A stretch of DNA of 58,218 bases, counting the filler, from Dugesia japonica (lineage: Eukaryota): the NCBI GenBank assembly GCA_001938525.1. It is 6 parts of 6 records of this genome, joined end to end, with 100 filler letters (N's around TTAATTAATTAA, not from the genome) between each part and the next. Parts side by side here need not be neighbours in the genome. Positions count along the whole stretch, not along the records: positions 8,582 to 21,325 come from MQRL01647294.1; 5 more parts are not named here. One strand, 5' to 3'. Made by a program: the position numbers and the translations under genes. The notes beneath the pieces were generated by a model, which was given only the letters and a program-made list of their open reading frames with translations, had not been told where the DNA came from and ran no database searches. Positions 2,965 to 58,218 of the stretch are shown here, in pieces. The first letter of the stretch is position 1. Each line of letters starts with the position of its first letter.

Positions 2965-5299
2965 GTTATATAAATAATAAGATGATTTACAAGTTAACAT
3001 TATATTNGTTAAAAAANTAGCAATATTAAAACAAATCAAATTCAGGAATTGACTTTTCAATTGACTTTTCAAAAGTCTCTTCCTGACGAAGACAAAGTCA
3101 AAATATAGAATTGTTATCAAAAATCAAAAAAACAAATTTTAATCGAAGCTTTTATTTTAAATAATTAAATTGAATTATAAAGTTACTAATATTATGAAAC
3201 AATAAAAATAAACACATCATGACAAATTAATTGTAATATTTTTAAACAAAATCATAACAAAAGGTTATAATAAATCAAAGGATTAATAAGTTTCAATCCC
3301 TGTAAATTATTAGAACATAATGCCACACCATCATTTGATATTCGTTTAACCCTCATACAATATTATCCTTTTAATATTTGTTCATATAATACGCATACAC
3401 GATTCATTTAATAGTTGTTTATTCATTGGACTATCTCGACGGATGTAAGCACTACAGGGTGATCAGTATAACTAACAATCCACAATCAAAACTATGTGCG
3501 CATCTCAATTATTATTTTAAACTTATACAAATAAATAATCAAATAATAAATTTACTTTTCTTAAAAATAGCGATATTGATACCATAGCTGTTAGACTCAA
3601 AATTGCATATTTTTAAAAAAGAATGATTTTTTGATTATTTTGCTTCCTTATATACCCTAATGTATCGTTAAATTTTGACAGATACTTCGTAGAAACAACT
3701 TTGGTTTTGTTTTTTTTCTACTTTATGAATTTTATGATTGATAGTGTATTATTCATTCGTGGGCTTTATTTCTTTTTTACAGCTTATTTTATTATTATTT
3801 TATTGACAATAAACGGTGCCAATACGATGGTGACATTAAAAATTGTGATCAGTAAGCCGGCGCCAATTACTTTTGAAAGAAAATGTTTTAACATAAAATA
3901 ATAATTTTAATTAATTCGATTTTTTTGAAATCGAAATATAAATAGGAAATACTACACAAATATAATTATTTCAATAATAATATCAGAATATTACTTTAAA
4001 TAAACAAATCTATTTCTACGTATAAATTTATTTTCCTAATTTTATTCGGATTTACATAAATTAAAATATTTAATGTAATAATAATAATAAAATTAGTAAT
4101 ATTTTAAAATAATAATAATTTTCAACTTTACATTACGTAATTTATTATAATATAATTTTATGATAATAATAACAATTATAATAATTATTTTTCCTGAATT
4201 ATATTGATGCTTTAATATTTTTATTATAAAAACGTTAATTTTACTTTTAATAATAACCTTTTCTTATTGGAGTTATTTGTTTTAATTTACATAATTATAG
4301 TATTTATTTTATTATATATATATATATATATATATACTTGTATAAACATTTATAAAAGTATAAATATTGATATAATATCCAGCTTTTCCTTTTTGTTTCA
4401 ATTTTGTGTTTCGTAATTTTTTCCGTTTCTTTCATTTCTTGATAAATTTTCATTTTAGTTCATCTTAATTAATATTCTTTTATTTTCTTGACGCCTATTT
4501 TATTAATGATTATTTCCTTTAATCTTCCTTTGAGCATTTTTTCTTTAATTCCTTTTATTTCCTGAGCCATAGTTGTTTATTAATCCTTGCATGACATTTT
4601 GCCTATTGATTATTTCTTTTGAACAATTATTTTTTTGAGTAGTATTTTATTATTTCTTCTTCATTTCTTAATTCATTTATTTTATTATCTATCATCTCGT
4701 TTCTCTATATTTTTTTCCTCTTCCCTTTTGTTTTAATTCATTTACATTTTATTAATCTATTTAATTCACTATTAATGCGTTAAGTTTGGCCTCATAGCTG
4801 CTGAAGCACAACATAATTTTCATTTTTAAAATTGTGACTATATATTTCTCGATAATCAATGTTCTTCGATAAAGTTATTGACGTAGCATTGAAATGAACC
4901 ACTTTTTCACTAGACTTTTTATAGCTATCAATATATTGATATTCACTTTGAAATGTNNNNNNNNNNNNNNNNNNNNNNNNNNNNNNNNNNNNNNNNNNNN
5001 NNNNNNNNNNNNNNNNNNNNNNNNNNNNNNNNNNNNNNNNNNNNNNNNNNNNNNNNNNNNNNNNNNNNNNNNNNNNNNNNNNNNNNNNNNNNNNNNNNNN
5101 NNNNNNNNNNNNNNNNNNNNNNNNNNNNNNNNNNNNNNNNNNNNNNNNNNNNNNNNNNNNNNNNNNNNNNNNNNNNNNNNNNNNNNNNNNNNNNNNNNNN
5201 NNNNNNNNNNNNNNNNNNNNNNNNNNNNNNNNNNNNNNNNNNNNNNNNNNNNNNNNNAGACAATGTTTAAGATGTATTAATAGATTTTTTTCTAAATTT

Positions 5300-5640
5300 T
5301 TTTGTTCAATACTCTATTGCTGTAAGGCAATTATTCTTACTATCTCCATTATAATTCCAAATAGCTTCATATATTGCCTTTGGAATATATATAATTTCCG
5401 GTTACTATTTTAACATTATTAAATGAAAGAATGAATGAATCTTTGAACAGAGTATAAAACATATAATTGGTGGGTGCTAAACAAGAAACTTAAGCCAAAC
5501 GTTTTCCAGTTTTATCAACTACTTTTACCTTTACATTCATACCTTATCATTCAAATTCAAATATGCTGTTTGATATCGAATAATGAAAAACAATATTTTG
5601 CTTTTTTGACCAGTAATTGAATTCATTGAAAACACATCTA
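5300..5640 (-). pseudogene. Polinton/adintovirus major capsid (hexon-like) N-terminal fragment, copy 1
   Basis: Frameshifted translation ...VKVKVVDKTGKRLA...APTNYMFYTLFKD...FNNVKI...AIWNYNGDSKNNCLTAIEY. Alignable at nucleotide level with 24840-25000 (PSNYMLHTPFKD...INYNADSKKKCLTAMEY). Confidence 0.7.
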
Positions 5641-8581: not shown

Positions 8582-9742
8582 ATTATTATTATTATAATAA
8601 TTTTAATTAATTATAAGTCACTTAACATTATTTCTGACTTTTTGGAAATAAGTAAAATATATTTTTAAATTCAAGTCTTAATGAATAATGTAATAAAGTC
8701 GAAAATGCCTTTTAATTACAATTATTGATTAAGAATTACTTGACTTTGGAAACATAATTTGATTATTCTTATTCTGTGGAATTTCAACATTATTAGAGCC
8801 ATATTTCCGTGAAAGAAATATTAATGAGATTTCCAAATTTTTAATTTACTGGAACTATTTTTTTGCTTAAATACTAATCTTGATTAATTTATGATTAACA
8901 TTTAAAAAATTCACTATTTACATATTAAATAAATTAAACATATATGTATTTATGTATTTTCGTTATAAATATATAAAGAATTAATGAAAATTATTTTACA
9001 TTATTTGAGAAATTCTTTCTGGGCTCCGTATTCTTGTACCAGAGCAAGTTTGTGGACTTCTATCATTTTTTATATAGACTTGATTTAACTTAAAAATTAT
9101 CTACTAAACTCATATTCCGAGTCAACCAAGGGATGATGATTTATTTCTCTGATGAGAAAATTATTTATTATTGTTAATTAATTTTAAGCGAATAAATCAA
9201 ATTTACATAAAATACAAATAAAAATTCGTAAAATAAAATAACATAAAATAGAAGTATTTTCCTAATTGAAATTTTTTAACCAAACTTTTTCTTAATTATT
9301 TTATCTTTAAAACTTTATAAATTTTTTTTGAGAAATTTGCTTTAAAAAATTTTGCAAATTTAAAACGAAATTTTCGATGTTTAATATTTTTTATATATTG
9401 CTGAAAATCTAGTGTTGGAAATTAATTTTAAAAAATTTTTGAGTCTAAAATTTACCCACGGATCATCATGATTCACTGCCTACTGCTAAAGTTCATCTCA
9501 TCCTACATCCAACGATCTATTTAATCAATGTAATATAATTAACCCAATCAATCCATTCAATACCGCTAATTTGCTCGATACAAATAATCCATGTGAAATA
9601 AAATAGCGACATTCAAAATCAAAACTAAAATTCTTAACTAGATTTTTTTTCAAATACAATTTATAAACTTAAAATAATATTTTTAAACTTGATTTGCATA
9701 CTTCAAAAATTCAAAATTTAAATTTAAAATTACCATTATTGT

Positions 9743-9853
9743 GAGAATAATTGTTGGACTTAACCATTGATCGCATTTGAGATTTCATTAAAATAAAGAA
9801 AAAGCTTCGAATAAAATATTTTGATCGAAGCTTTTTCTATATTTTAATGAAAT
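9743..9853. repeat. Interspersed repeat ending in a ~29-bp-stem hairpin (related copies at ~7288-7340, ~54688-54810, partial at ~3140-3160)
   Basis: Shared motif GAGAATAATTRTTGGACTTAACCATTGATCG. 9782-9810 and 9825-9853 are near-perfect inverted repeats. Confidence 0.7.
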
Positions 9854-11361
9854 TTTAAATTTAAACTTATTTTGCACCGCAAAATAATTAATGCAGATCC
9901 CAAAACCTTAAATAAAGTAATTCAAATTACCAGCCAAATTTTTTTAATACATTTAAAATAATCATTTCAAATTGATAAGCCTATTTTTTGCATCAATATT
10001 TTCTAGAAAAGAACCCCCGTTCTCTATGCGCGATAACAATTAGGTGATTGAGTGTGCACCTATCTCTTCCAGTATTCTGATTAATTAGTTTNCCATATCC
10101 TTGTACTAATTACAAGCCACATTTTATTTGCAAATAGATAAATAATCAGCAAATTCTCATTTTCTCATCAACGTTAGGCACTTTAACCAGATGTTTGGTT
10201 CATACATACTAGATTCAACTAAATGACTCAGCTCGATAAAAATCCAACACATACACGGTAAAACACACACACATACACGATGAGAAGGTTGTTTTTCCAG
10301 TATTCTGATCGCTACTAGATCAGTTGCAGGGCTTCCTACAATCTGACTGACAGATTACTAGATCACTTAACAAAGAATTTGCTACCCATATTAATGTATT
10401 GTATCATTTTTATCTCACTTATATTTTAATGCTTATTAATATTGTTTACAATCTATATTAANATTTTGCTGAATATTTTATTGTTATTAATTAACGATTT
10501 CGATTTTAATCCAACCATGCATATTAATAGAAACGTCCTGTTCTGTTAAATTTTAAAATAATTAATTTTTGTATTGATAATAAAAATTATTTAGAAATCC
10601 TAATTTTAATTTAAGTTATTTATTTAACTTTTCACATTTTCAAAAATTTCAAATTTTTTTCCTAATTATAATAAGTTATAAATTGTCGAATTTCTAATTT
10701 CGCATGAAATTATTTCTGAAAGCTTTAGGAAAAAAAACAATTAAAAATCCCATTTTAGTTAATATTTCCAGTTTTAATAGTTAATGAAGAGTTTTAAATA
10801 CAACAGCTGACAATTATAATTTTTGTAAGAGCTTTTATCAATATATCTAATAGTTTATTTCAGAAAAAATCCATTTAATAATTGCATGAATTATTTTAAT
10901 TTTTCATCTGTTTTCTATAAACAATAATAAATGAAATTTCTTTTACTAAATTAATTTTTTTTAAAAAATTGTAATTGCTTTGTAATTCGTGTTTCTTATT
11001 AATTAATAAATATTTGTAAAGCAATATTTTAAATTGTTCTCTAAATTTATTTTCAGTTTTCTTGTTGACAAAGTAATTTATATAAAAGCTTTTTTTTAGT
11101 TTTCCAATTACAAAATGCTATGAATAATTTATTTGGTTTAGTTTTTAAGATTTATTTTGATAAATTAATAATTGTGCTCATATTTAAATTATAAAATGAC
11201 AAAAAAAACTTTAAAGCAAATATTTTATTATTATTTTTATTATTATTATAATAATTATTATTATAATTATTAATTAATAATCTTATCCAATAGAAATTGA
11301 GTTATCTGAATATGAATATTGAAATTCTAGTATTTTAATATTATTTATCTTATGAAACATG

Positions 11362-14300
11362 TGTTGTAGTAGTAAAATAAATAATGTCTAAAAATAATAA
11401 TTGTGATTTGCAAAANGAATTACCNATTGAAGATTTACCNAACATGGTGGCAGTGGTAAATACCGATTCTATTACAGAGAGGTTATTGCCAAAAGTGTTC
11501 TGCAGAGGAGATGATATTGAGAAATTCATCAAGCAGTGTGTATTGTATTTTTAAGCTTAAAACATCACCCATGTGAAACAACAGGAGAGATTAGTCACTT
11601 GTTTGCTAGATGAAGATTTGTTGAAAGAATATTTAAAGACGTTTAAACGTTGAAAGTTTTCAGTCTCACTCACATATGGCATTTGAGAAAGAAAAAGATG
11701 TTTTCAAAGATTTTCAAAATTTGATTAACTACAGGCGTGAAAATGAAGGATTCAAGTTTATTTTAAAAATGTAAAAGATTTAGTGGAAAGATTATTTACA
11801 AATAAAGATTTTACTGAGAAAAAATGGTAGCAAAAATGCTACTATATTGTTCAGATAACAAAAAAATTGAAGAAGAAATGACTTTGAGGAAACGAGAGAA
11901 TATAGAAGAAATTGAAGAAACAATGATGTTAGTAGATCGAGTAGAGAAAAATAGAGATTGTGTTGATGCAGTTAGAAGTTACGCAAGAGTTACAAGTCAA
12001 AATTATCAGAAACCAGTAAATTATACAGTGAATAGAAATGTGGATCAAAGAAAGGAAAAACAAAAATATCGAATGTTGGTTATGTCATAAGATCGATCAT
12101 AATAAAGCAAATTGTCCGAAAAAAAGTGGTAGAGTGCTGGAGTTGTCATAAAAAAGTCGAGATTGTCCAAATAAAAACTAACAAAATGTTTTGGTTGTTG
12201 AAAGGTTGGCCATATTAGAAGGTTATGTCAAGAAATAATGAATTTGCATAGTTAATAATAAGTAATGTGATATTGGCGGACATATGGCAGAAGAGTGCTA
12301 CACAAACTTGAAAATGAAAAAAACAAGTGAGAAATTTATGACTGCAGAAAGATCAAGAAACCGATATAATCGAGTTCATGCGGTTGAAGATAAATATGTC
12401 AGTACAAACGGTGGATTTGAGGAAGTATATGAAAGTGATTCCGAAAGGCAGTAACCAAAAAGCAGGGCTCTATTAGTATTGGAGTTTGTTGGAGCCATCC
12501 ATTGTTAAATTAAGTGAGTAATTATCCTCAAGGGTTCAAAAAGTGGGATGATATAGGAAAAGTTACAGAAAAAGTATACAGGTTCTTAAAGAGGGAAAAT
12601 TTTGCAGATGATAGACAAGTAGAATAGGTTGGAACAATTGAAGCAAGAAAGAAAACAAATATTTCGTACTATAAATTGCAAGGCAGACCAAGTGTTACGG
12701 TATCAATTCAAGGAAATAAAGNNNNNNNNNNNNNNNNNNNNNNNNNNNNNNNNNNNNNNNNNNNNNNNNNNTTTGAGTTGTTTTAATAAATTACAAGAAG
12801 TAAATTTAGAAATGAGTGATAAAAGATTGCGTTGTGCAAATAATAGTACACTTGAAGTTGTTTAGTAAAGTTAGAACTGGAGTGATAATTGATGAAGTTT
12901 GCAAAGAGATTACTTTCTTAGTTGCTGAAAGAGTGACANCAGATCTGATAGGAAGAAAATATATGAAGAAGATNTTTGGATATCAGCTTATGTGAAAGGT
13001 TAACAGCAAAATGGATGAAAAGGTTGAAAATTACATTTGCAGTATTGAAGCATAATTTGGGAGACAAATTAAAAAAGGAGAGTGATTGACTTAAATATTT
13101 TGAAGATTAAAGAGAATCAACGGTTACTGAAAATAATTGAAAGTAAAGAAGATGCTTTTATGGCAGATAAATGTGATGTAGGACGCACACATCTGACAAG
13201 ACATAAAATAATCACCAGTGGTGAACCGATCAATGTAAAACCATGCAGGCAACCAATGAACTTAGAAGATAAAATTGAAGAAGCTATCCAAAGCCTTTTT
13301 GAGAATAATATTATAAGGAAATACAGCACTCCATGGAATACCCAACTGATCTGTGTTTGGAAAAAGGAACAGAAGGACAAAAGAATATGTTTTGATTTCA
13401 AAAAATTGAATGAAGTAACGAAACGTCAAGCCTTTCCGATGACTAGTGTCGATGAAATGCTGGACAAGTTAGATGGAGCCAAATATTTCAGTTCAATAGA
13501 TTTGGGAAATGCATAATATCAGGTAGAGCTCAAAGAAGAATCTCAAGAAAATACGGCGTTTTCAACAAAGCATGGACAATATTGTTTTAATAGAATGCCA
13601 TTTGGCATCGTAGTGGCACCAGAGACATTTCAGGAGATGATGATAAAAATGGTAGGCGGAATCAATAGAGCTGTTGTTTATCTTGATGACATTATGATAT
13701 TTAGGAACAATGAAAATCAACACTACAAAGTCATTGAAAACGTATTGATGGAAATAACGAAGGGTGGTCTAAGAATAATTCCGGGAACGTGTCAGTTTCT
13801 TCAAAGCGAAATCAAATTTTTTAAACACATAATTAGCAGGAATGGTGTTAGAACTGATCCGTCTAAAATAGAAGCAATATGAACATTTGACAAACGTAAC
13901 TGTGTGTAGAAGTTACAAAGTTTCTTGGGAATTTGTAATTATTACAGGAAGTTTATAGAAAACTACGCAAGAAAGTCAAAGATATAAGAGCAGTTGTGTA
14001 GCGGACCAAGCAACAAGAAATTAGAATGGACAGAGAAAAAATCGATACTTTTAAAGGTCTGAAAAACTCTCTAATAACTGCATTAATATTGTGTTTTCCG
14101 GCCATTAAACAAAGAATTTATATTATACACAGATGAAAGTTTTGATACAATTGGAGCAGTATTGTCAAAGAAAGATAAGGAAGGAAGAGAAAGAGTTGTT
14201 GCCTATGGATCACACTCAATGATGAGTCATGAAAAGAGATGCTGCATAACACGAACAGAGTTATTGGCTGTGTATTATTTCTGTATGCATTTCAAACATT

Positions 14301-14587
14301 ACTTGTTAGGTAGAAGATTTACTCTTAGAAAAGATCATAAAGCTCTAACTTTTATGATGACGACAAATAAACCGATTACGTCACAATTCTAAACATGGAT
14401 AAATTATCTGAGCAGTTTAGATATAATTTTGGAATATAGAAAGGAATTCAACATGGTAATGCAGATATGTTATCTAGACCAAGATATGAGGTATGTGTAC
14501 AATGTCAAATGTAGAAAATCAAGAAAATGACAATTCCGGATGACAAACTACATATGAAACAATAGAAGAAATACACAAATTATTATA
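11362..14587 (+). mobile_element. Degraded Ty3/gypsy LTR retrotransposon (LTR remnant, tRNA-Leu PBS, gag with CCHC knuckles, protease, RT, RNase H, start of integrase)
   Basis: TGTTG...AACA followed by PBS TGGTGGCAGTGGT at 11445-11457. Gag MVAVVNTDSITERLLPKVF. RT RICFDFKKLN, YFSSIDLGNA, MPFG, VYLDD. RNase H VVAYGS...ELLAV...DHKAL. Truncated at 14588 by a Polinton terminus. Confidence 0.93.
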
Positions 14588-16240
14588 AGTAGGAAGATAG
14601 TAGCGCACGGTCACAATTTAAAATGGTCACAAGTTGATGGGGTCTCGACAACTGCTTACGATTGTGACCGTATTTTTGTGATGGTTTTTTTTCTAAGATT
14701 TTGGGATCAAAAAAAATTTTTTTTGTTTTTTTTGGAGTTTTTAAGATTTGGTTGTTGTTGGACAAAATTTCGCTCTATATATTGTCTAAAGGACTTATGA
14801 TGTTGGATGTATGGTTTGTCATAGAAGTATGGTAGCGCACGTTCACAGTCATATGAGTTATTGCGGGGTATTTTTTTTGGAGGCTGTAGGTTTGTAGTGG
14901 GTTTATGGATTTTGTTGCTTGATGATTTATTGGAGATGTAATGTGATGAGCAATACTTTGGATGTCAATTGTGACTTAATTTCTGATTGGTTGTGCTTGA
15001 ATTTGATTAGTTAATATTTGTAAGTAGTATAAAAATGTTAAAAAAATTTCGCAAAGGTATGTGTGGAAAGACAATTAATTATCGGATTTTTTAAGATTTA
15101 TTTGAAATCTTTCAGGCAGAAGTGTATGACGTCATCATCTTTTGAAATCCTTATTTTGGTTAAAATTTTGAATTTAACGAAAGTAATGGTATTTTTGTAA
15201 AAAGGATGTATTTTTGAATATATTTTGAGTATTTTTGAACAGGGAAGGTTTGATTTTTAATATTTTTCGAACCGGGAAGAGGGGAGTCTTGATATATTTT
15301 TTGGCAGGAAACTCAAAGATTTTTTTGTTGGGAAATTTAAAGAATTTTTTNNNNNNNNNNNNAAGAATTTTTTTTTGCATGAGAAATTTAAATTTGTTTT
15401 TGAGAAGACTTTATATTTATGTGTAAGATGGAGCAGTCTTGATATTTAGCATGGGGAGTTTCTATATTTAGTAACGGGAAGTTTCTATATTTAGCATGGT
15501 ATCGGCAGTCTTGATATTTTGCATCGGGCAAACTTGATATTTCGCATGGGTCAGTCTTTATATTTTACATGGTATGAGCAGTCTCTATAATATTACAAGA
15601 TATCGGGCAGTCTTAATATTTTTCATGGTATGAGTAGCCTCTTTATTTTGCATAGGATGGAACAGACATGATATTTTGCAGTAGATGGATCAGTCTTGAT
15701 ATTTTTGCAAGAGATTGGACAGTCTTGATTAAGAACTATAATACTTTATGAGTGTATTATTTACAAAGTAAGCCTGTATAATATGTTTTATGAGAGTATT
15801 ATTTGCACGCAACCGTGTATTATGGGGTTTACAAGTATTTTATTTACAAAACAACAGTTTAATGGTTTTTATATGTATTATTTACATAACAATTATGTAT
15901 TCAAGGATTATAAGTGTATTATTTGCATAGTTACCTTGTCTTATTTACATAGTAACTATGTATTATAGGGTTTATGAGTGTTTTATTTACATAGTAACTG
16001 TGTAATATAAGACTTATAAGGGTATTATTGTCATAGTTACCTTGTTGTATTTACATAACAACAGTATAATATAAGACTAAGGAGGGAATTATTTACATAG
16101 CAAACGTGTAATATAAGGTTTATGAAGGTAGTTTTACATAGTAATTATGCAATATAGAGTTTATGAGTGTAATCTTTGTAAATTTACATTGTATTATTTA
16201 CTTATCAACTATGTAATATAGGTTTTATCAGTGTGGATCA
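14588..16240 (+). mobile_element. Polinton/Maverick terminal inverted repeat arm with subterminal tandem arrays (left arm)
   Basis: Starts AGTAGGAAGATAGTAGCGCAC, the AG-initiated, AGT-rich Polinton-type terminus. Homologous to 56785-58200 (+) and 25750-26909 (-). ~30-bp GGCAGTCTTGATATTTTGCAT repeats at 15425-15730 and ~42-bp repeats at 15735-16240. Confidence 0.8.
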
Positions 16241-16439
16241 TTTTCATATTTATAACTTAAAATTACTGTATTTATACTTAATGTTTACTTGTTGATGTTT
16301 TTTTTACTGAAATAAATCATTATGAAAAACCTTATTAATATGTAATTATAAAACATGTTTTTTACAAAATAACTAAAAATACTAAATAAAAGAAAAACAA
16401 AATATTAAAACATTTATTCAATGATAACAAAAATATTCA

Positions 16440-16727
16440 TTGTATTCATTCATTTCAGCCAGATGCTTTTCTATAGCAACCAGTAAATTAAACTTTGTGC
16501 ACCCGAAACAACCAGGTGCGCAAAATTCAGCTGCCATATAGTGATTTACCANTACTTCCGGAAGAAAAGGTTGCCTTTTTTCGTCCAAGATTCCCCGTTC
16601 TTAGCAAATATCAACAAGCATTCCTTAATTAAAATTAATAATAAAATTATAAAATAAATAAAAATCAAACCTCTTTTGCAAATTGTTCTTTCATTATCTT
16701 CATTTTTTCAATAATTGTTGAAGCCAT
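16440..16727 (-). pseudogene. Small two-exon ORF relic with CAPGCFGC motif, inside the Polinton arms
   Basis: ATG at 16727 (MASTIIEK). GT...AG intron at ~16670-16624. Exon 2 reads GMLVDIC*ERGILDEKRQPFLPEVXVNHYMAAEFCAPGCFGCTKFNLLVAIEKHLAEMNE. Needs one frameshift and contains one stop. Confidence 0.4.
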
Positions 16728-16757
16728 TTTAAAATTATAAGAAATAATAATGAAATG

Positions 16758-16791
<34 letters not shown>

Positions 16792-16904
16792 CTAATGAAA
16801 AACCTCAACGTAATATATAAATTATTTGAAATTTATATATCTAAATTTAAATGGAGTTTTTTTGTACTTGAATTATAAAAGTTTTGCATTTGTGTTGCAA
16901 ATTT

Positions 16905-17357
16905 TCAAAATTTATCAATCAAATTAAATAAATCTGAAGTAATGTTACTCACATATCCTTGAAAATTCAAATTTTAAAGCTCTATTATTACTGGTTTTCC
17001 CGTTGAGAACACATTTAGACATAAAGGGTCATATTTTACAAGTCTTAGAGCGGGAAATAACTCTGGTTTAAACCAACAGTTGACTATTTTTGATAATTTA
17101 TACAAATTTATTGAAACTCCCATATTTAATACAATGGATAGCGATTGAAATTGTAAATATTTTCTTTCATAAGGGTTTAAATCAAGCGGTTCCAATGGTT
17201 TCTTACAACCCGTTATTCTACATTTTCCTAATCTTAAGTACATAATTGTAAATTTATCACTTTTAACTTGGAATGGACAGGGTTTTCCCTTTAAGAAAGC
17301 TCATTTTTTAATTACTTCTTGCGACACTTCACCTCTGTAATTAATATTGGTGATCAT
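16905..17357 (-). pseudogene. Divergent intronless TATA-binding protein (TBP)-like gene, two in-frame stops
   Basis: One frame of 151 codons: MITNINYRG...*...TIMYLRLGKCRITGCK...LQFQSLSIVLNMGVSINLYKL...FKPELFPALRLVKYDPLCLNVFSTGKPVIIEL*NLNFQ...F*. Aligns by eye with both TBP core repeats (TALIFSSGKMVCTGAK; YEPELFPGL...LLIFVSGKVVLTG). Confidence 0.78.
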
Positions 17358-17489
17358 AATAAATGAATTAAGAAGAACATTAGGAATATGATGGTATTAA
17401 TTTAATTGATTCGTTATAAAATGTAATAAATTAAAGAAAACTAAGATAAGCAAATGATAATCAAATTATTCTATGTAGAAAATACCACC

Positions 17490-19080
17490 ATAAGCCTTAT
17501 TTTACACAGTTGCTCTGACAATAATACATGGTTGTTATATAAATATTACATGGTAACTAAACAAATAATATACTCATAAACCGTATAATATATGGTTACT
17601 AAGCATTAATACAGTCATAATCCTTATAATACATGGTTGTTATGTAAATAATGTAAGGTAACTGTGCAAATAATATACTCATAAAACCTATTATACAAGG
17701 TTACTATGTATTAATTCACTCAGAATCCTTACAATAGAATGTTGCTATGTAAATAATACAAGGTAACTATCCAAATAATATACTCATAAACCTTATAATA
17801 CAGGTTTACTATGTATTAATACAATCATATTCCTTATAATATATGGTTGCTATGTAAATAATGTAAGGTAACTGTGCAAATAATATACTCATAAAACCTA
17901 TTATACAGGGTTACTATAAATTAATTCACTCAGAATCCTTATAATAGATGGTTGCTATGTAAATAATACAAGGTAACTATGCAAATAATATAGTAATAAA
18001 CCTTATAATACAGGGTTGTTTTGTAAATAATTCCATCATAAGTCTTAGATTATACCGTTTTTATGTAAATATTACCCCCCATAAGCCTTTTATAACACGG
18101 TAAATATGTAAGTAATATACACCTAATACAGGTTTAAACAATACACTCAGAAACCCTATATAGTCATAACAACATTTACTTATAAGTTTTATGTAGACCT
18201 TTAAGGTATTTTTAAAGTAATTTTTAGTTATATATATGGAAAATTGTCACTCTCATACATCTTATAATGTATATTGTATGTAAATAATATAAGTTACCTA
18301 TGTAGATATCACACTCATAATCCTTAAAATACACGGTTGCTATGTAAATAATGCAAGGTAACTATGCAAATAATATACTCATTAACCCTATACAACCATA
18401 AAAGTATTTTCTTGTAAGTTTTTATATATTGAAAGGCGCCATGAATTTATGTTTTTTTTGAAAACAGTTCTACGTTTTTATCATTTTGTTCTAAGAAATG
18501 TTCTTAGTTAATGAGATTTTTTATAAAAAAATTACAACACTAATGAGATTTTCTATTAAAAATTGCATCGGTAATGAGATTTTTTACAAAAAATTTCAAC
18601 ACTAATGAGATTTTTTATCGAAAACTGTCACTAGTAATATGTTTTTTATAGAAAAATTACCTAGCTATATGTGAATATGTTTTTTATAGAAAAATTACCT
18701 AGCTATATGTTAATATGTTTTTTATAAAAAAATTACCTAGCTATATGTTTATATAAAAATACTTCTATGTTTTTATCATCTTATAAAGAAATGTTTTGAT
18801 TTGAATATTTTATTATGTAAATATCACAGAGACTCCCCTCTTTGATATTTTCATTGGATATATTTTATCATGAAAATATCACAAATACACTGAAAATCAC
18901 ATGCCTATAAATTTTAGATGGTTTCATCCCTTGCAAAATATCAAGACTGTCCCATCTAAAGCAAAAATATGTTTAAAAAATCAATAATGCTTCAATCTCT
19001 TAAAAATATCAAGACTACCCAATATCCTGCAATAATATCAAGACTGGCCTATCTAAAGTAAAATATAAAGAAATAATCAA
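17490..19080 (-). mobile_element. Inverted (right) Polinton TIR arm, terminus missing
   Basis: 17490-18390 is the reverse-complement family of the 15735-16240 array. 18930-19070 (TGCAAAATATCAAGACTGTCCC) is the reverse complement of the 15425-15730 repeats. ~31-bp repeats at 18500-18750. Confidence 0.75.
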
Positions 19081-20107
19081 TAATTATTTTTAAATAATTT
19101 AATTCAAATAATTAAAATAATCTCTAATGATAATTTTTGAGATACATTTTATATTTATAATTATCATTTTTGAAATGTTAATTAATTATTAACTTCTTTG
19201 TTGAAATTAATTCCTCAGTTAAAACTACTTCTTTTGTTGAAATAATTTATTATCTTGAAATAAGTTTCTTCGTTGAAAATAATTCCTTTATTTAAATGAG
19301 TTCTTTTGGTAAAATTAATTCATTAACCCCACTTGAATAAAAAAATTTTCAAATAAACATAAATTATAATGACGAAAACTTATTTTACTTTCCGTTTTCT
19401 ATTAATCAGTATTACTTCAGTATTTATATCACTTTACTGGCTAATTGAGCGATGCATAATCTTTTTATTTTACCATTATCATCCATTTAATTTTTATATT
19501 TAGTTTTACTTTTAGTAAGAATTTTAATACTAATTATGTTGCATACCACTTGGATTTAGAAAAGAATATGAAAGAAAAGTCTTACAGTAAAGTCTAATTA
19601 ATAGTTAATTAAGAGTGAAAAAGTATAAAATTTATGTTCAAAAATTAAATAGAATAAAGAAATTTTTCATCAAAACTAAAAGTAAAAATGTTATCAATAG
19701 AAATTAAAAATAAACTTCACTTATCATAGGTTGCGGACTGTTGATATATATTATGTTTATTAGTTTGTATAATTATTTTTCATTTGTATAGAATAATAAA
19801 TTTTATATTTAATACCAATCATATTAAAAACTTTTGATTTTGGTTAAATTTCTCAACTTGTTTCCAATTACTACTTCTAGGGAATTTTATTTATTTATTT
19901 AATATAATTTATTACTTATTTCAATTCTAATACTGTTTATAAAAATATATCATACAATATATAAAATAAACAATCCAATAATTTCACTTGAATTCTTTTA
20001 TGAATACCATAATTGGTGTTGCTAAATAAAATACGTTTTTTACGATAAAATTACAATTAAACTGAAATATAATAATGATGATATATTTAGATCATATATA
20101 TATTTAA

Positions 20108-20410
20108 TTATTCTCTTGACTTCGGTTTATAAATCATTTTCGAAGTAGTTTGTGTAAATGTTTGATATTCATTTCTAGGTACTACAATGCATCCTGGGTG
20201 ATCAATCGGAGTAAAAATATTTGTTGAATCCCATTTCATTGGATTATAAAACCTTCGTGGATTATCACATTGCATAATCATTGAAGGTTGAGGACGAGGA
20301 ATTGGACACTGAAGTTCATCTGGTTGTTTCATTCCTTCACAAGAGCCTGAATCGCAAACAAATCTTTTCCACTGATCTACACCGCCATATGAAGAATTAC
20401 ATTGACACAT
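20108..20410 (-). CDS. Orphan Cys/Pro-rich ORF (100 aa); 5' end uncertain
   Basis: Uninterrupted ORF with higher GC than its flanks and 7 Cys (MCQCNSSYGGVDQWKRFVCDSGSCEG...). No family recognised. Confidence 0.45.
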   Translation of the reverse strand: MCQCNSSYGGVDQWKRFVCDSGSCEGMKQPDELQCPIPRPQPSMIMQCDNPRRFYNPMKWDSTNIFTPIDHPGCIVVPRNEYQTFTQTTSKMIYKPKSRE

Positions 20411-21325
20411 TAATTTTTGTTATTTGCTTCTACAATTATTTTTTAAAATATAAAAATATATCCAATAACAACATCAATATAATTATTAATTTAATATTTT
20501 CAAATATAGCCTTTGAATTTGATAATAATTTTAAAGATCGCTTCTTTTTACTCTTTTCTATAATGCTGTATAAAGAAAATATATTTCAATAATTTCTGTT
20601 ATTTACTTTACTGTGTCCATCTGTGACAGTTTAACTCAGAATTGGTTCAAAAATGGGGTTAAATTCGATTAAATATCTATTTGAAATGAGGGTGTCATTT
20701 TGACAAGTTAAATTGCTGACAATTACACAAAAATACATCATAGATTCATCCTATAATTGTTCATTTAATACTATTCTCACTGTTATATTTATTTCAAATT
20801 TTATAATCTATTGTTCAATTTTAATAACATGAACAAAGACGACGTCTAAAATAGCAAAATTTAACAATCATCTACGTTGTATTAAGAGCGAACATTATTA
20901 AGCTAGAGTGAAGATCAATGAAGAGCGGGAAAGCCATTGATGATTGAATACTAGTACACAGTGATCAGAGCATTGATGAATGAAGATCGGCAAAGAGTAA
21001 GAAAATCAATAAGTGAGAGAAAAGACCTATGAAGACTAAATTGCCAGTCTAAAGGTAGACCGGATTCGGCCTCACCGAGGAAATAATTTGACATTGATTA
21101 CCCATAATGAGGAAATTCTAGACCGAAATTAACCTGAATTTACTTCACTGAGTAAATTATCAATCTATTTTTATTATTTTTTATGTTCCTCGGGTGAGAA
21201 ATCTAAATTAAGAACACGTTTTTCTATATAAGTTTTTATCTATAAGGTTTAACGATTTTAGGTTTACATATTTTTAACGTAAAATTCTCTATCAAATGAA
21301 CCCTTTAATGTTCAAATTTGAGTTA

Positions 21326-21425: not shown

Positions 21426-21477
21426 TGTATATATATATAAGATCAAAGTAAAATTATTTTTCAATTAGTTCTGTTAG

Positions 21478-21870
21478 ATGTCAGAGAAATGTAGAAAGCT
21501 ATCTGGTGAAGCATATAAGAAACGAAAACTTGAAAAAGAAGAAAAACTCAAGAAAGAAATCATTTCGATTGCACATTTCTTTCAATAAGTTACTTCCTCA
21601 AGCAATGAAACGCCTATTGAAACTGAAGATAAATCGCCAAATATTCCATATCAAGAATATGAAAATGCAATCAATCCGAAAAAAAGATAGCGAAGCAGTT
21701 TATCTTCTGCGCCAGACAAAATATCTTTACAATGGTAGGTTAAAGTGCCAACACAAGTACACACAACATAAAATGCGGAACCAGAATCTATCTCTTTTAG
21801 AAAGGAAAGTAAAGATTTATCAAATATTACTGAATTAGATTTAAATGATCCAGACCTATGGCCAATAAAC
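21478..21870 (+). mobile_element. hAT (ZMYM1/Tip100-like) transposase N-terminal relic
   Basis: MSEKCRKLSGEAYKKRKLEK at 21478 and ELDLNDPDLWP at ~21832-21864. The SGxxxRKRK start and DPxxWP motif are typical of this hAT group. Frameshifted. Confidence 0.55.
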
Positions 21871-33738: not shown

Positions 33739-34149
33739 ACCCAAATCGCTACAATTCTGTTTTCTTGCTCCTTATGTAAAAAGCTAATTTGCGTTTTCAC
33801 ACATGTGAGTTGAGTAAAATTCCTGTAATGTTCAATTATTTTGATTGTCTACTTTATTCTCTTTATTTAGTCTGATACGATTTGATATAGAAGCGATTCT
33901 ATCTTCTGTTGATGATTTTTATTCTGTAATTAGATATAATAATAATGATATTGTTACAGTCTTTAATTTAATAATAAATTTGATTTATTAATCTTTTCAA
34001 TTAAATACAGATTAAATATTATTATTCTTGAAAAATATTATTTGACTAGATATAATTCGTCTAAAATTACTAAAGAGATTTAACTTTAAATTTTTCATTT
34101 CATATTTTGGTTTAAATCAAAACATCTTAAAAACAAATTAGTAAATAGA

Positions 34150-35632
34150 AATGCAGTGGGCCATAAAGAATGTTCCCTTGTAATAAGAATACAGTTGATG
34201 TTCCAATTTAGGAATTAACAGAGCTCATACTTAGGAAAATTATGCATGTCGTATCCTCTTAAATTATGGAATAGAAAAGGTAATTTTATGTTTATTCTTC
34301 TTCTTAGATTGCAAGAGTTACATGATGCGTCCATGTTTTCATATAAATTATATAGTATTGTATCAAAATACTAAATTCTTAAGCATTCATCATTTAAATT
34401 AAAAAACACCTGTAAAATATCGTACCATAAAATAATATATTTTGTTCAGTCAAATACCCAACATAGTTATAATTTTATCCCCCTTCAAGTAACAATAAAT
34501 TTGTTTTCTGACTAATTTCAACTCTTGATCTTTGAACAATATCCAAATTAGGATGTTTCATAAAGATTTCCACATCCTCATAGTCAATAGAATTTCTATT
34601 AGATGATAACACATTGATAGATAACCCTGGATTTGGGTTTACAAATTTCAGTAGAAATCANNNNNNNNNNNNNNNNNNNNNNNNNNNNNNNNNNNNNNNN
34701 NNNNNNNNNNNNNNNNNNNNNNNNNNNNNNNNNNNNNNNNNNNNNNNNNNNNNNNNNNNNNNNNNNNNNNNNNNNNNNNNNNNNNNNNNNNNNNCTACAC
34801 ATTAATTTTAACTTTTTTCTTTCCATTATTAGAGTGCGACAAATAACTACTTCCTGTAAGCCGACTTATATTGCTTATTTTAGTCAATTTGAAGTTAATT
34901 TTTAATATTCTACTGAGAATCTAGCTACTTCCTAGTTCAGTTCATACATGAATGATCTTCTCATTTAATGACTTATTTCATTCTTCAAAAAACTAATCAC
35001 AAAGTAGTACAGCACTATTAGATATTAGATATTTCGATGAACTCTAATGAATCCCAAATTGAATTTTTCCATTCTTCATTTTTTCAATTATTTGAAATAA
35101 TCTATTTACTAAAGTATCTGGTAAAATTATCTCTCGTATGTTAAATCTTAAAACATTTAATGTCAAGATCTGGTGACATCTGTACAAGTCGGTTTCAGTA
35201 ACAGATTTGGCTATGAAACTGCCAATCTGTGATTATTCCTTCAAATATTTGTTTACACTTTTTCTGTAACATCATTAAGGTTCTCTTCAATTATTTCAAT
35301 ATTATTCGAGTCCGTTTCTTTATTTACAACCACTTGTTCAATAATTGCTTGTTCATTCTTGATAATATCTTTATCCTCGTTATTAACAATCACTTACGGT
35401 TAAAATATTTTAGAAGGAGAATCTTCGAGAATTTCCATCAACAGTGTTTTATTACTTGAAGTACATTGTGTCAATTGATGTGTATGCGGCCTTGATATGT
35501 ACTTAAACCTAATGTAGAGCATGCAGGACATATATAATACATTTTCTGATAATAAGATTATAATATCTTTTGATTTTCTCATGATAGAGATCGTTAAATT
35601 TTGAATTTCTACAATAGTTGGTATATTCTTTT
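34150..35632 (-). pseudogene. Polinton pPolB 5' part, copy 3 (heavily degraded, not evident from the ORF track)
   Basis: Fragments in order: EYTNYCRNSKFNDLYHEKIKRYY, YYICPACSTLGL, TELGSS*ILSRILKINFKLTKISNISRLTGSSY, NPGLSINVLS...KHPNLDIVQRS...NLLLLEG, ASCNSCNLRRR...LPFLFHNLRGYDMH (ExoII). Confidence 0.85.
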
Positions 35633-39919: not shown

Positions 39920-40459
39920 TCAACACGTATTATAATTTGCTTTAGCTTCATAGTATTTTCTTTCTACTCGTCTCCAATTGTAAGGATCGAGGCTGAGTTC
40001 ACAAGTCTCATGATAATGTTCATCAATTCCTGCACATCTTTCATCAAGTCGTTTGCATATAAAATTACATTTCCTGCCAATTCTGATATATCTCCGTCGA
40101 CAGAAATCTTTAATAGCATCACAAGCTTTATTACAGACCATATCGAGGAAATATAATCGATTTTCGCAAACCTGTTTCGGATTGCCACATTTATTTAGTA
40201 AATTTGATTCTTTAGCATTACATCCGTCAGTTAAATGATGGAAAGCTTTATCACATTTCTTGGCAAGAACATCACTCGCTCCTTTACATATCATACCACC
40301 ATGTTTACGAAATTCATCACACTTCAACTTTAGAGGTATCAGATCTTCACATTCTTGCTCTCCATATCGAACTAAAATTGGTACCTTTGCAGATGTGTAT
40401 TGAATAAATATTAAGATAATTACTAAAAACAGAATTGACAAAATATTGTAATTTATCAT
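39920..40459 (-). CDS. Secreted cysteine-rich protein, 179 aa, 15 Cys with 11-residue periodicity; no family recognised
   Basis: ATG at 40459 directly follows a TTTTTTTTCAG acceptor. Signal peptide MINYNILSILFLVIILIFIQYTSA. Intact single-exon ORF. Confidence 0.85.
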   Translation of the reverse strand: MINYNILSILFLVIILIFIQYTSAKVPILVRYGEQECEDLIPLKLKCDEFRKHGGMICKGASDVLAKKCDKAFHHLTDGCNAKESNLLNKCGNPKQVCENRLYFLDMVCNKACDAIKDFCRRRYIRIGRKCNFICKRLDERCAGIDEHYHETCELSLDPYNWRRVERKYYEAKANYNTC

Positions 40460-40699
40460 CTGAAAAAAAATATTATTAAAATTATAAATAAAACATTTCA
40501 TAAGATGTCTCACTTTACAGAATTTATTAAAATAAATAATAATACTGATTGTTATGCTTTTGTATTCTAGTTGATTTGTAGGACTGTGGAGCTGTGATCT
40601 ACACAACTAATTTGATGCACCTACGTAATTTTCACCACATTTTCTTTCAATTTGAAAATTGTAGGCTTTCAATAAGTTCATCAACTAAAAATGCTAGCA

Positions 40700-56784: not shown

Positions 56785-58200
56785 AGTAGATAGAAAGAAG
56801 CGCATCAAAACACTAGCAGTTATCGTGCATCCCTCCCTCGCGGAGAGGGCTCGGAAACACTCTATTGTGCTATGATTTTTTAATTATTTTTTTCTAAGAT
56901 TTTTGGGATCAAAAATTTTTTGATCAGATCAAATTTCTTTTGATCCTGGTGATGTGTGTTTGTTTTTTAATTTTAAAATTTGTGTGTTTGGGTTGTTAAA
57001 GTCTTTTTTAAAAAGTAGGTCAAGTTGAGTTGGTATGTGTGGTTGTGTGTGCTTGAAAGAAGTGTTTTGGACTCGAGGGGGAGCTGGAGATCTTGGAAAT
57101 ATTTTTTTTGGAGTTTTCAAGATTTGGTTGGTGTGGACAAAAATTTGGTCTATATTTTGTCTAAAAAATTTATGGGATTGGATGGATGGATTTTGCTAGA
57201 AGTGTGGTAGTGCATCAGATCAGTCGTACTAGTTATCGTGGGGTGTTTTTTAGGGAGGTTGTAGGTTTGTAGGAGGTTATTGGATTTGAATGGTTGATGT
57301 GTTTTTGGAGAGGTAATGTGATGGAAAATATTTTGTATGTCGAATGTACTTTGATGTTTTATTTAAAGGGGTTGAATTTGATTGGTTGATTTTTATAAGT
57401 AGTATAAAAGTGTTAAAAAAGTTTTTGGGGAGGTGGACAAAGGTATGTGTGCAAAGACAATTAATTATCAAATTTTTTAGGATGTATTTAAAATTTTTCG
57501 GGCTGAAGTGTATGACGTCATAATCTTTTGAAATCTTTATTTTGGTTAAAAATGCTGTATTTTGCTTTAAATGATAAATTTAATGAAAGTAATGGTATTT
57601 TTGTTAAAATGATGAATTTTTGAACAGGGAAATTTTGTTTTTTAATATTTTTGGATGTGGGAAGAGGATAGTCTTGATATTTTTTTTGGCAAGAAATTTA
57701 AAAGTTTTCTTTTCGGCGGAAATTCAAAAAAATATTTTTTTGGCGAGAAATTTAAAAATTTATTTTTGCATGAGAAATTTAAAATTTTTTTATTGAGCAG
57801 ACTTTATATTTATGTATGAGATGGAACTGTCTTCATATTTAGCATGGGTAGTTTCTATATTTAGTAACGGGGAGTTTCTAAATTTAGCATGGTATGGGAA
57901 GCCTCTCTTTTATGTATGAGACGGGGGATTTTCTATATTTAGCATAGTATGGGGCAGTCTTGATATTTTACATGGACGATTCTCTATATTTTGCATGTGA
58001 CCGTCTTGATATTTTGTATGGTATGAGGGAGTCTCTATATTTAGCATGGTATGAGGGAAGTCTCTATATATAGTATGGTATGAGGGGAGTCTCTATTTTC
58101 GTACAAGATATTGGACAGTCTTGATATTATTACACGATATCGGGCAGTCTTGATATTTTGTAAGATATTATTACAAGATATCCGTCAGTCTCTTCAAAAA
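56785..58200 (+). mobile_element. Polinton TIR arm, third long copy
   Basis: Starts AGTAGATAGAAAGAAGCGCATC exactly where hAT homology ends. Colinear with 14690-15730 and with the reverse complement of 25750-26800. Confidence 0.8.
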
Positions 58201-58218
58201 ACTTCAAAGAGTGCAGTC

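Follow-up and report, generated by a model that had tools for sequence, protein, structure and literature searches.

Polintons are elements whose ends start with AG, and non-autonomous forms were reportedly described by Kapitonov and Jurka in 2006. The target-site duplication (TSD) of Polintons/Mavericks is 6 bp long, and non-autonomous Polintons are mentioned in passing in the same source (PMC3014272). In MELD viruses, TBP is listed in a figure legend (Starrett et al. 2021, PMC8502044; bioRxiv 10.1101/697771). This legend was the only mention of a Polinton or MELD TBP in the accessible portions of the published text, and one supplement file of PMC8502044 contained no occurrence of TBP or TATA.

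We analysed a window of 58,218 nt from Dugesia japonica (GCA_001938525.1), composed of short draft scaffolds joined through N44-linker-N44 spacers and containing many N gaps. One of these scaffolds (MQRL01647294.1, positions 8582-21325) carries the locus of interest at 14588-19080. The genome is AT-rich, with a GC content of 26%. An earlier note offered two readings of this locus: a deletion derivative of a Polinton, or a non-autonomous element in which a transcription-factor cassette was retained. The locus is Polinton-derived, as it combines a terminus with a gene common to Polintons. We assign a probability of roughly 65% to its being a dead, internally deleted Polinton remnant that later lost its right end. 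The features of the locus and its flanks are as follows:

11900-14587, plus strand: decayed Gypsy pol (RT, RNase H), the insertion target (Pfam; RNA reads of the family)
14588-15400, plus strand: Polinton-type terminal inverted repeat (TIR), outer portion, with the only terminus of the putative remnant and a 12-N gap inside (alignment)
15285-15730, plus strand: 'A' array of 23-28-nt units (about 28 nt), inner TIR (repeat analysis)
15740-16240, plus strand: 'B' array with periods of 22, 42, 64 and 106 nt (repeat analysis)
16418-16727, minus strand: small gene with two putative exons, 16727-16671 and 16623-16418 (sequence)
16760-16789, no strand: (AT)15 microsatellite close to the point where high depth gives way to low (sequence, depth)
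16905-17357, minus strand: pseudogene of 150 codons from a Polinton-borne TBP-like family (Pfam, frame analysis)
17464-18400, minus strand: inverted 'B' array, repeating every 105/210 nt (68-86% identity with its left counterpart)
18486-18754, no strand: arrays of 31-nt and 38-nt units, unpartnered on the left (comparison of arms)
18925-19071, minus strand: inverted 'A' array, the broken right end of the putative remnant, with no terminus beyond it (alignment)
19194-21025, no strand: single-copy flank without Gypsy integrase or TIR (depth, Pfam, motif search)

Contigs from three DNA runs and reads from one RNA run, out of 24 listed runs, were aligned to the locus. The RNA reads are uninformative on the expression of the locus copy, since 2739 of the 2925 were less than 95% identical to it. 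They did provide insight into the left junction. The Gypsy pol gene (Pfam RVT_1, E 4e-23; RT_RNaseH, E 2e-25) is broken off just ahead of its integrase by a Polinton-type end, which starts at 14588 with the same 14 nt that occur inverted at 26896-26909. RNA reads of the Gypsy family track the locus to 14586 and then diverge into other letters (62 reads), which, by their motif, we take to be the start of the integrase (zinc finger). Because these reads continue past 14586 into the putative integrase start, the terminus at 14588 represents a true insertion.

No right-hand terminus was found between 17400 and the end of the scaffold. Over the same interval the outer TIR had no inverted partner (local scores of 30-31, with shuffled sequences reaching up to 35), and the two other TIR copies in the window scored 486 and 561. 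There was also no TSD: the 6 nt preceding 14588 recur only at 19363, within the single-copy flank, and the 7- and 8-mers at this position showed no recurrence. Gypsy is not resumed to the right of the locus, as judged from zero Pfam matches in all six frames of 19061-21325, and a search of the window for its continuation motif, allowing up to 3 mismatches, gave no match. Had a whole unit inserted, the target would be duplicated and Gypsy would continue on the right, and neither is the case. The flank was recovered as one contig of 1.8-1.9 kb per DNA run, with a depth of 8-12, in all three runs, and depth drops to 12-170 from 19242 onward. In two of the three runs the flank contig carried 91 non-aligning letters left of 19194, which may derive from the other allele or from a short array variant.

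These junctions bear on whether the layout is an artefact of short-read assembly, with pieces of high-copy repeats scaffolded together, which we consider very improbable. The region 15363-21325 is free of gaps except for one N, a 170-nt contig identical to 14811-14980 was found in two of the three DNA runs, and the left junction falls exactly where the family reads leave Gypsy, in a copy diverged enough to assemble uniquely. In favor of an artefact are the gap in the left arm, the many gaps of the window, the 91 non-aligning letters at the right junction, and the fact that none of the contigs listed spans the whole stretch or bridges either junction. The claim that everything lies within one contig holds only loosely: the scaffold is single, but its left arm is interrupted by the gap at 15351-15362.

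The two arms had been described as mirroring each other. This is true of the A and B arrays, which reappear inverted on the right in mirrored order with 68-86% identity, but in the left arm it does not extend to the outermost ~800 nt. In 50-nt windows across 15750-16150 identity was 60-86%, against 50-60% on a control of unique flank. Outside of the arrays, the left arm consists of ~700 nt of non-repetitive TIR at the outermost position, and it is 70-75% identical to the two other TIR copies in the window over 0.8-1.0 kb. The A array also occurs within these TIR copies, at 25750-26000 and 57670-58190. Conversely, nothing in the left arm matched the region of the 31-nt and 38-nt arrays on the right (18450-18900); the 31-nt array was found also at 23669-23900. 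With only about half of each arm mirrored, and with both 14588-15400 and 18450-18900 unpartnered, the arms do not make up a TIR pair. We infer that the right arrays are the subterminal arrays of a Polinton end; the deletion points are putative as well.

The gene content of the locus agrees with the statement that no pPolB, integrase or capsid lies inside. We searched 14588-19080 with 597 ORFs of 80 related loci and only the TBP family matched; genes for pPolB, rve integrase, packaging ATPase, protease, and major and minor capsid proteins were absent. This genome is unusually rich in Polinton debris: the window alone has pPolB fragments (four), capsid fragments (two) and a PZ-like fragment, together with two further TIR copies. 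Gypsy and hAT-like debris is also found in the window, and this mixture, with a probable 47-nt intron, fits a eukaryotic and probably invertebrate genome. In the next scaffold, a single TIR (25690-26909) joins a capsid gene at mid-length, and the fragment of that gene abutting the TIR, 24333-25013, is 5'-truncated and has internal stops. Intact relatives of this capsid are at most 72% identical to it, and the pPolB fragment of this scaffold is three N gaps away from the TIR and capsid. The same TIR family had been said to flank capsid and pPolB there; it does adjoin the capsid fragment, but as one TIR rather than on both sides. Random internal deletion of Polintons is thus common here, and nothing suggests that the TBP gene was chosen.

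The ~1.2 kb between the B arrays holds the TBP-like frame and the small gene. Both of the genes claimed for this interval are present and co-oriented, but neither is intact. The TBP-like frame matched Pfam PF00352 at 29.4 bits (gathering cut-off 22.9, E 7e-7) and also matched archaeal TBPs. It carries premature stops at codons 19 and 128, and so the locus has no open frame for the full TBP fold. Ten relatives were found: eight of ~150 aa with 53-71% identity, one 84-aa piece, and one with 41% identity. We rejected a captured host TBP pseudogene, since the closest relatives (53-71% identical) are short Polinton-linked proteins, whereas identity to cellular TBPs is ~15-24%.

The genomic context of this family was investigated in metagenomes, where a scan yielded 121 confirmed TBP-like loci, of which 80 were kept; a profile search gave 251 clusters at E ≤1e-10, with cellular TBPs included at the lower end. 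Core Polinton genes (ATPase, integrase, capsid, protease or pPolB) lie beside TBP in 44 of the 80 loci, in 31 of the 39 of at least 3 kb, and in 15 of the 17 of at least 5 kb. Two long loci, L009 and L020, have TBP without core genes within ~5 kb. Pfam identified representatives as A32-like ATPase, rve integrase, adenain-like protease and pPolB; the capsids had no Pfam match and are presumed to be such from recognised family resemblance. In the near-complete L007 and L013, TBP is located 2.2-2.4 kb from one end of the contig and is directed inward, towards the ATPase; the TBP at our locus is directed likewise relative to the right arrays. Co-oriented, adjacent pairs of TBP and a small ORF are found in L004, L007, L011 and L013. 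None of the 18 loci (out of 80) examined for complete terminal inverted repeats had them.

In a tree built by a quick method from 85 rows, with no cellular TBP and with the 75 of 80 loci whose TBP ORF was long enough, the window protein and 8 close relatives clustered on a single branch (SH-aLRT 99). This branch lay within a group (support 89) to which loci with core genes, L007 and L013 among them, also belong. The TBP-like gene is thus an ordinary gene of a Polinton clade. As a normal passenger of full-length elements, its presence at the locus needs no selective retention. In viral contigs, none of 57 pattern matches was a TBP-like relative, and neither the B-array motif nor the terminus motif was matched; phage records also gave no match.

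Members of this widespread family are short (median ORF of 155 aa). The intact relative P0002, 71% identical to the window protein, has a predicted fold (pLDDT 88.7) with the TBP saddle, matching solved TBPs at a TM of 0.75 over ~175 columns (E 1e-8). The model also matches NCLDV TBP-like proteins, and its identity to the best viral structural matches is 13-17%. At the sequence level only the second repeat can be aligned with cellular TBP. The alignment takes in the EPELF stirrup, the conservation of which is partly selected because EPELF served as a search pattern. F41 (81/83) and G50 (83/83) are conserved without having been part of the pattern.

A TATAAAC motif within 70 nt upstream was detected for 16/29 ATPase, 15/19 PZ-like, 8/12 PLA2-like, 4/12 capsid, 4/10 exonuclease-like and 2/16 minor capsid genes, and for none of 18 integrase or 67 TBP genes, on a background of 3.6% and among relatives that are not independent of each other. 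The B arrays of the locus contain no TATAAAC and 3 ATAAAC each, with 1.6 per kb window-wide. The TBP-like protein of intact elements is most likely a viral late transcription factor, a function suggested by the predicted fold and by the motif distribution. In intact elements it would be expressed early, bind TATAAAC ahead of packaging and virion genes and, once bound, might recruit host TFIIB and RNA polymerase II. If this is true, a short TBP and a TATAAAC box would constitute an early-to-late switch for Polintons without an RNA polymerase of their own.

No single frame is open across the small gene, which is probably made of two exons around a putative 47-nt GT-AG intron and encodes a CxxxCxxC motif. 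No homologue was found among proteins of 37-119 aa or in the 80 TBP-linked metagenome loci (best E of 0.08-0.2, taken as chance), and no Pfam family matched its two frames at E ≤1. Similarly, none of 23 TBP-neighbour ORFs of the related loci matched any Pfam family at 0.01. Its identification as TFIIB was rejected, since no zinc-ribbon or cyclin-fold Pfam match was obtained; a very diverged form is possible. The gene does have other copies, represented by one 242-nt contig at ~90% identity, with a depth several times that of single-copy sequence.

Depth along the locus provided insight into what has been amplified. Summed contig depth is not copy number and varies with the divergence of the locus copy from other copies; in these terms, it was ~0.7-4 x10^5 over the outer TIR, the TBP-like gene and the right arrays. 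Parts of the left inner arrays reached 6-24 x10^3 and the small gene 1-3 x10^3, with values of 17-390 at the four sites listed between 16273 and 16678. The small gene is thus ~100-fold shallower than the TBP-like gene, with the step located at 16630-16850. Family copies mostly match at 90-95% identity, and other TBP copies have different DNA downstream, as in a 462-nt contig that aligns only over 16903-17080. The abundant unit seems to comprise TIR, arrays and TBP, like the end of a normal element, while the pair of TBP and small gene seems to be rare. A gap of ~100-fold indicates that amplification has not acted on the two genes as a unit. The step speaks against such a unit at high copy number and is compatible with one at low copy number.

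The depth step would also be explained if two Polinton subfamilies, a rare one (left arrays and small gene) and an abundant one (TBP and right arrays), had been joined near the (AT)n at 16760, either by recombination or by insertion of one into the other followed by deletion. We regard this as quite unlikely. The different DNA downstream of other TBP copies agrees with such a join, as do the arms, which are only 68-86% alike, have periods of 106 and 105/210 nt, and differ by the extra arrays on the right. Nevertheless, the two genes lie side by side in the same orientation, as TBP and a small ORF do in the related loci, and the identity between left and right equals that among the left-arm units themselves (61-80%). 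The asymmetry of array content may be native to the parent element. The (AT)15 at 16760-16789 is in any case a candidate point of deletion or recombination.

A low-copy family of mini-Polintons is unlikely as well. Such elements (TIR, TBP-like gene, small gene, TIR; ~5.3 kb whole) would be mobilised in trans by autonomous helpers, and the copy at the locus would have lost its right terminus later. Mirrored A and B arrays that enclose just two genes, the clean left insertion into Gypsy, and the further copies of the small gene (~90% identity, several times single-copy depth) all fit this idea, and the intact capsid relatives, at most 72% identical, are possible helpers. Set against it are the missing right terminus and TSD, the breakage of both genes, the ~100-fold depth step between them, arms unlike in array content, the failure of the layout to recur within the window, and the zero matches for two motifs in viral contigs. 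By extension, it is a doubtful proposition that young mini-Polintons supplied the late factor in trans or competed for it, in the style of satellites or defective-interfering elements, and that the locus is an old copy minus one end. Were a mobilised mini-family real, it would represent a satellite-like element acting on the transcription of its helper.

Our preferred reading remains that of an internally deleted remnant. A Polinton inserted into a Gypsy element, as the left junction shows. An internal deletion would then have removed the ATPase, integrase, capsid, protease and pPolB genes, sparing the TIR-proximal TBP-like gene and an accessory gene, with subterminal arrays from both ends on either side. 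The outermost ~800 nt of the right TIR and the remainder of Gypsy, which are absent, would have been lost in another deletion or rearrangement, and both genes then decayed, as their broken frames demonstrate. The order and position of the deletions are inferred. Among the points against this reading, the arms differ in array content and are less alike (68-86%) than expected for the two ends of one element from a family with mostly 90-95% identity, and the other copies of the small gene may point to a low-copy family with the layout of the locus.

Between the two readings of the earlier note, the deletion derivative gains support from the one terminus, the mirrored inner arrays, and the nesting of the TBP among Polinton-borne TBPs. 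The alternative of a non-autonomous element retaining such a cassette is unsupported at this locus, given no right terminus or TSD, no resumption of Gypsy, broken genes and a ~100-fold depth gap. An intact Polinton is also contradicted, as the locus lacks two TIRs, a 6-bp TSD, pPolB and integrase, and ATPase, protease and capsids; nor does it have the two intact termini of a mobile non-autonomous derivative. With one terminus and no full-length TBP-like protein, the remnant would be inactive now, as an integrase would have only one end to recognise. A one-ended, decayed remnant matters little in itself, and the locus is a poor example of a Polinton-borne TBP.

Several known systems are close to the locus. 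It is reminiscent of non-autonomous, internally deleted DNA transposons in that an internal deletion has left terminal sequence in place, but those elements need both termini and show TSDs and repeated junctions, none of which the locus shows. Compared with the TBP-like genes of MELD and giant viruses, the P0002 model is alike, while the family is short and the locus copy is a pseudogene. The locus differs from Polintons/Mavericks in having no core gene, one terminus, no TSD and two broken genes. It has the AG start of Polinton ends. Its long TIR with subterminal arrays is shared with Polintons/Mavericks (adintoviruses; PMC8502044), as is a gene whose relatives adjoin ATPase, integrase, protease, pPolB and capsid.

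Fragments of Polintons, comprising pieces of pPolB, capsid, the PZ-like gene and the TIR, are spread over the majority of the scaffolds joined in the window. A considerable fraction of this genome must consist of this family.

Positions of these pieces, each from pPolB, capsid, the PZ-like gene or the TIR:
231-494
4810-5540
21426-23560
24333-25013
28000-28850
29512-29661
34149-34334
25690-26909
56876-58218

Another deleted structure was found at 23669-26909, in which a TIR and the A array (inner TIR repeats of about 28 nt) are joined to the mid-portion of a capsid gene, and the 31-nt array known from 18486 comes next; the structure is uncertain because of three N gaps. Around the PZ-like fragment, a further inverted repeat set (29060-31460; 91-97% identity over 110-160 nt) occurs together with 20-, 31- and 32-nt arrays, and these repeats may be the termini of another Polinton family.

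Three DNA sequencing runs each yielded a contig that skips 882 nt of the TIR (14809-15692), and therefore shortened TIR variants are present elsewhere in the genome. At the broken right end of the TBP-bearing remnant (14588-19080), 91 letters (19103-19193) in the flank contigs of two DNA runs did not align to the window, a possible allelic difference at this end.

Two Cys-rich open frames were also detected, both probably host exons or genes; the product of the second looks secreted.

20108-20419, minus strand, Cys-rich open frame without Pfam match
39920-40606, minus strand, Cys-rich open frame without Pfam match

Among the 80 metagenome loci carrying relatives of the TBP-like gene (L001-L080), L009 encoded a dual-specificity phosphatase (Pfam DSPc, E 6e-20) at 4008-4316. 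The distance to its TBP-like gene is 1.6 kb, and 5.3 kb of this contig contained no core gene (ATPase, integrase, capsid, protease or pPolB). No TATAAAC box was found upstream of the TBP genes of the TBP-bearing Polintons in this set, in which the box precedes many ATPase, PZ-like and PLA2-like genes.
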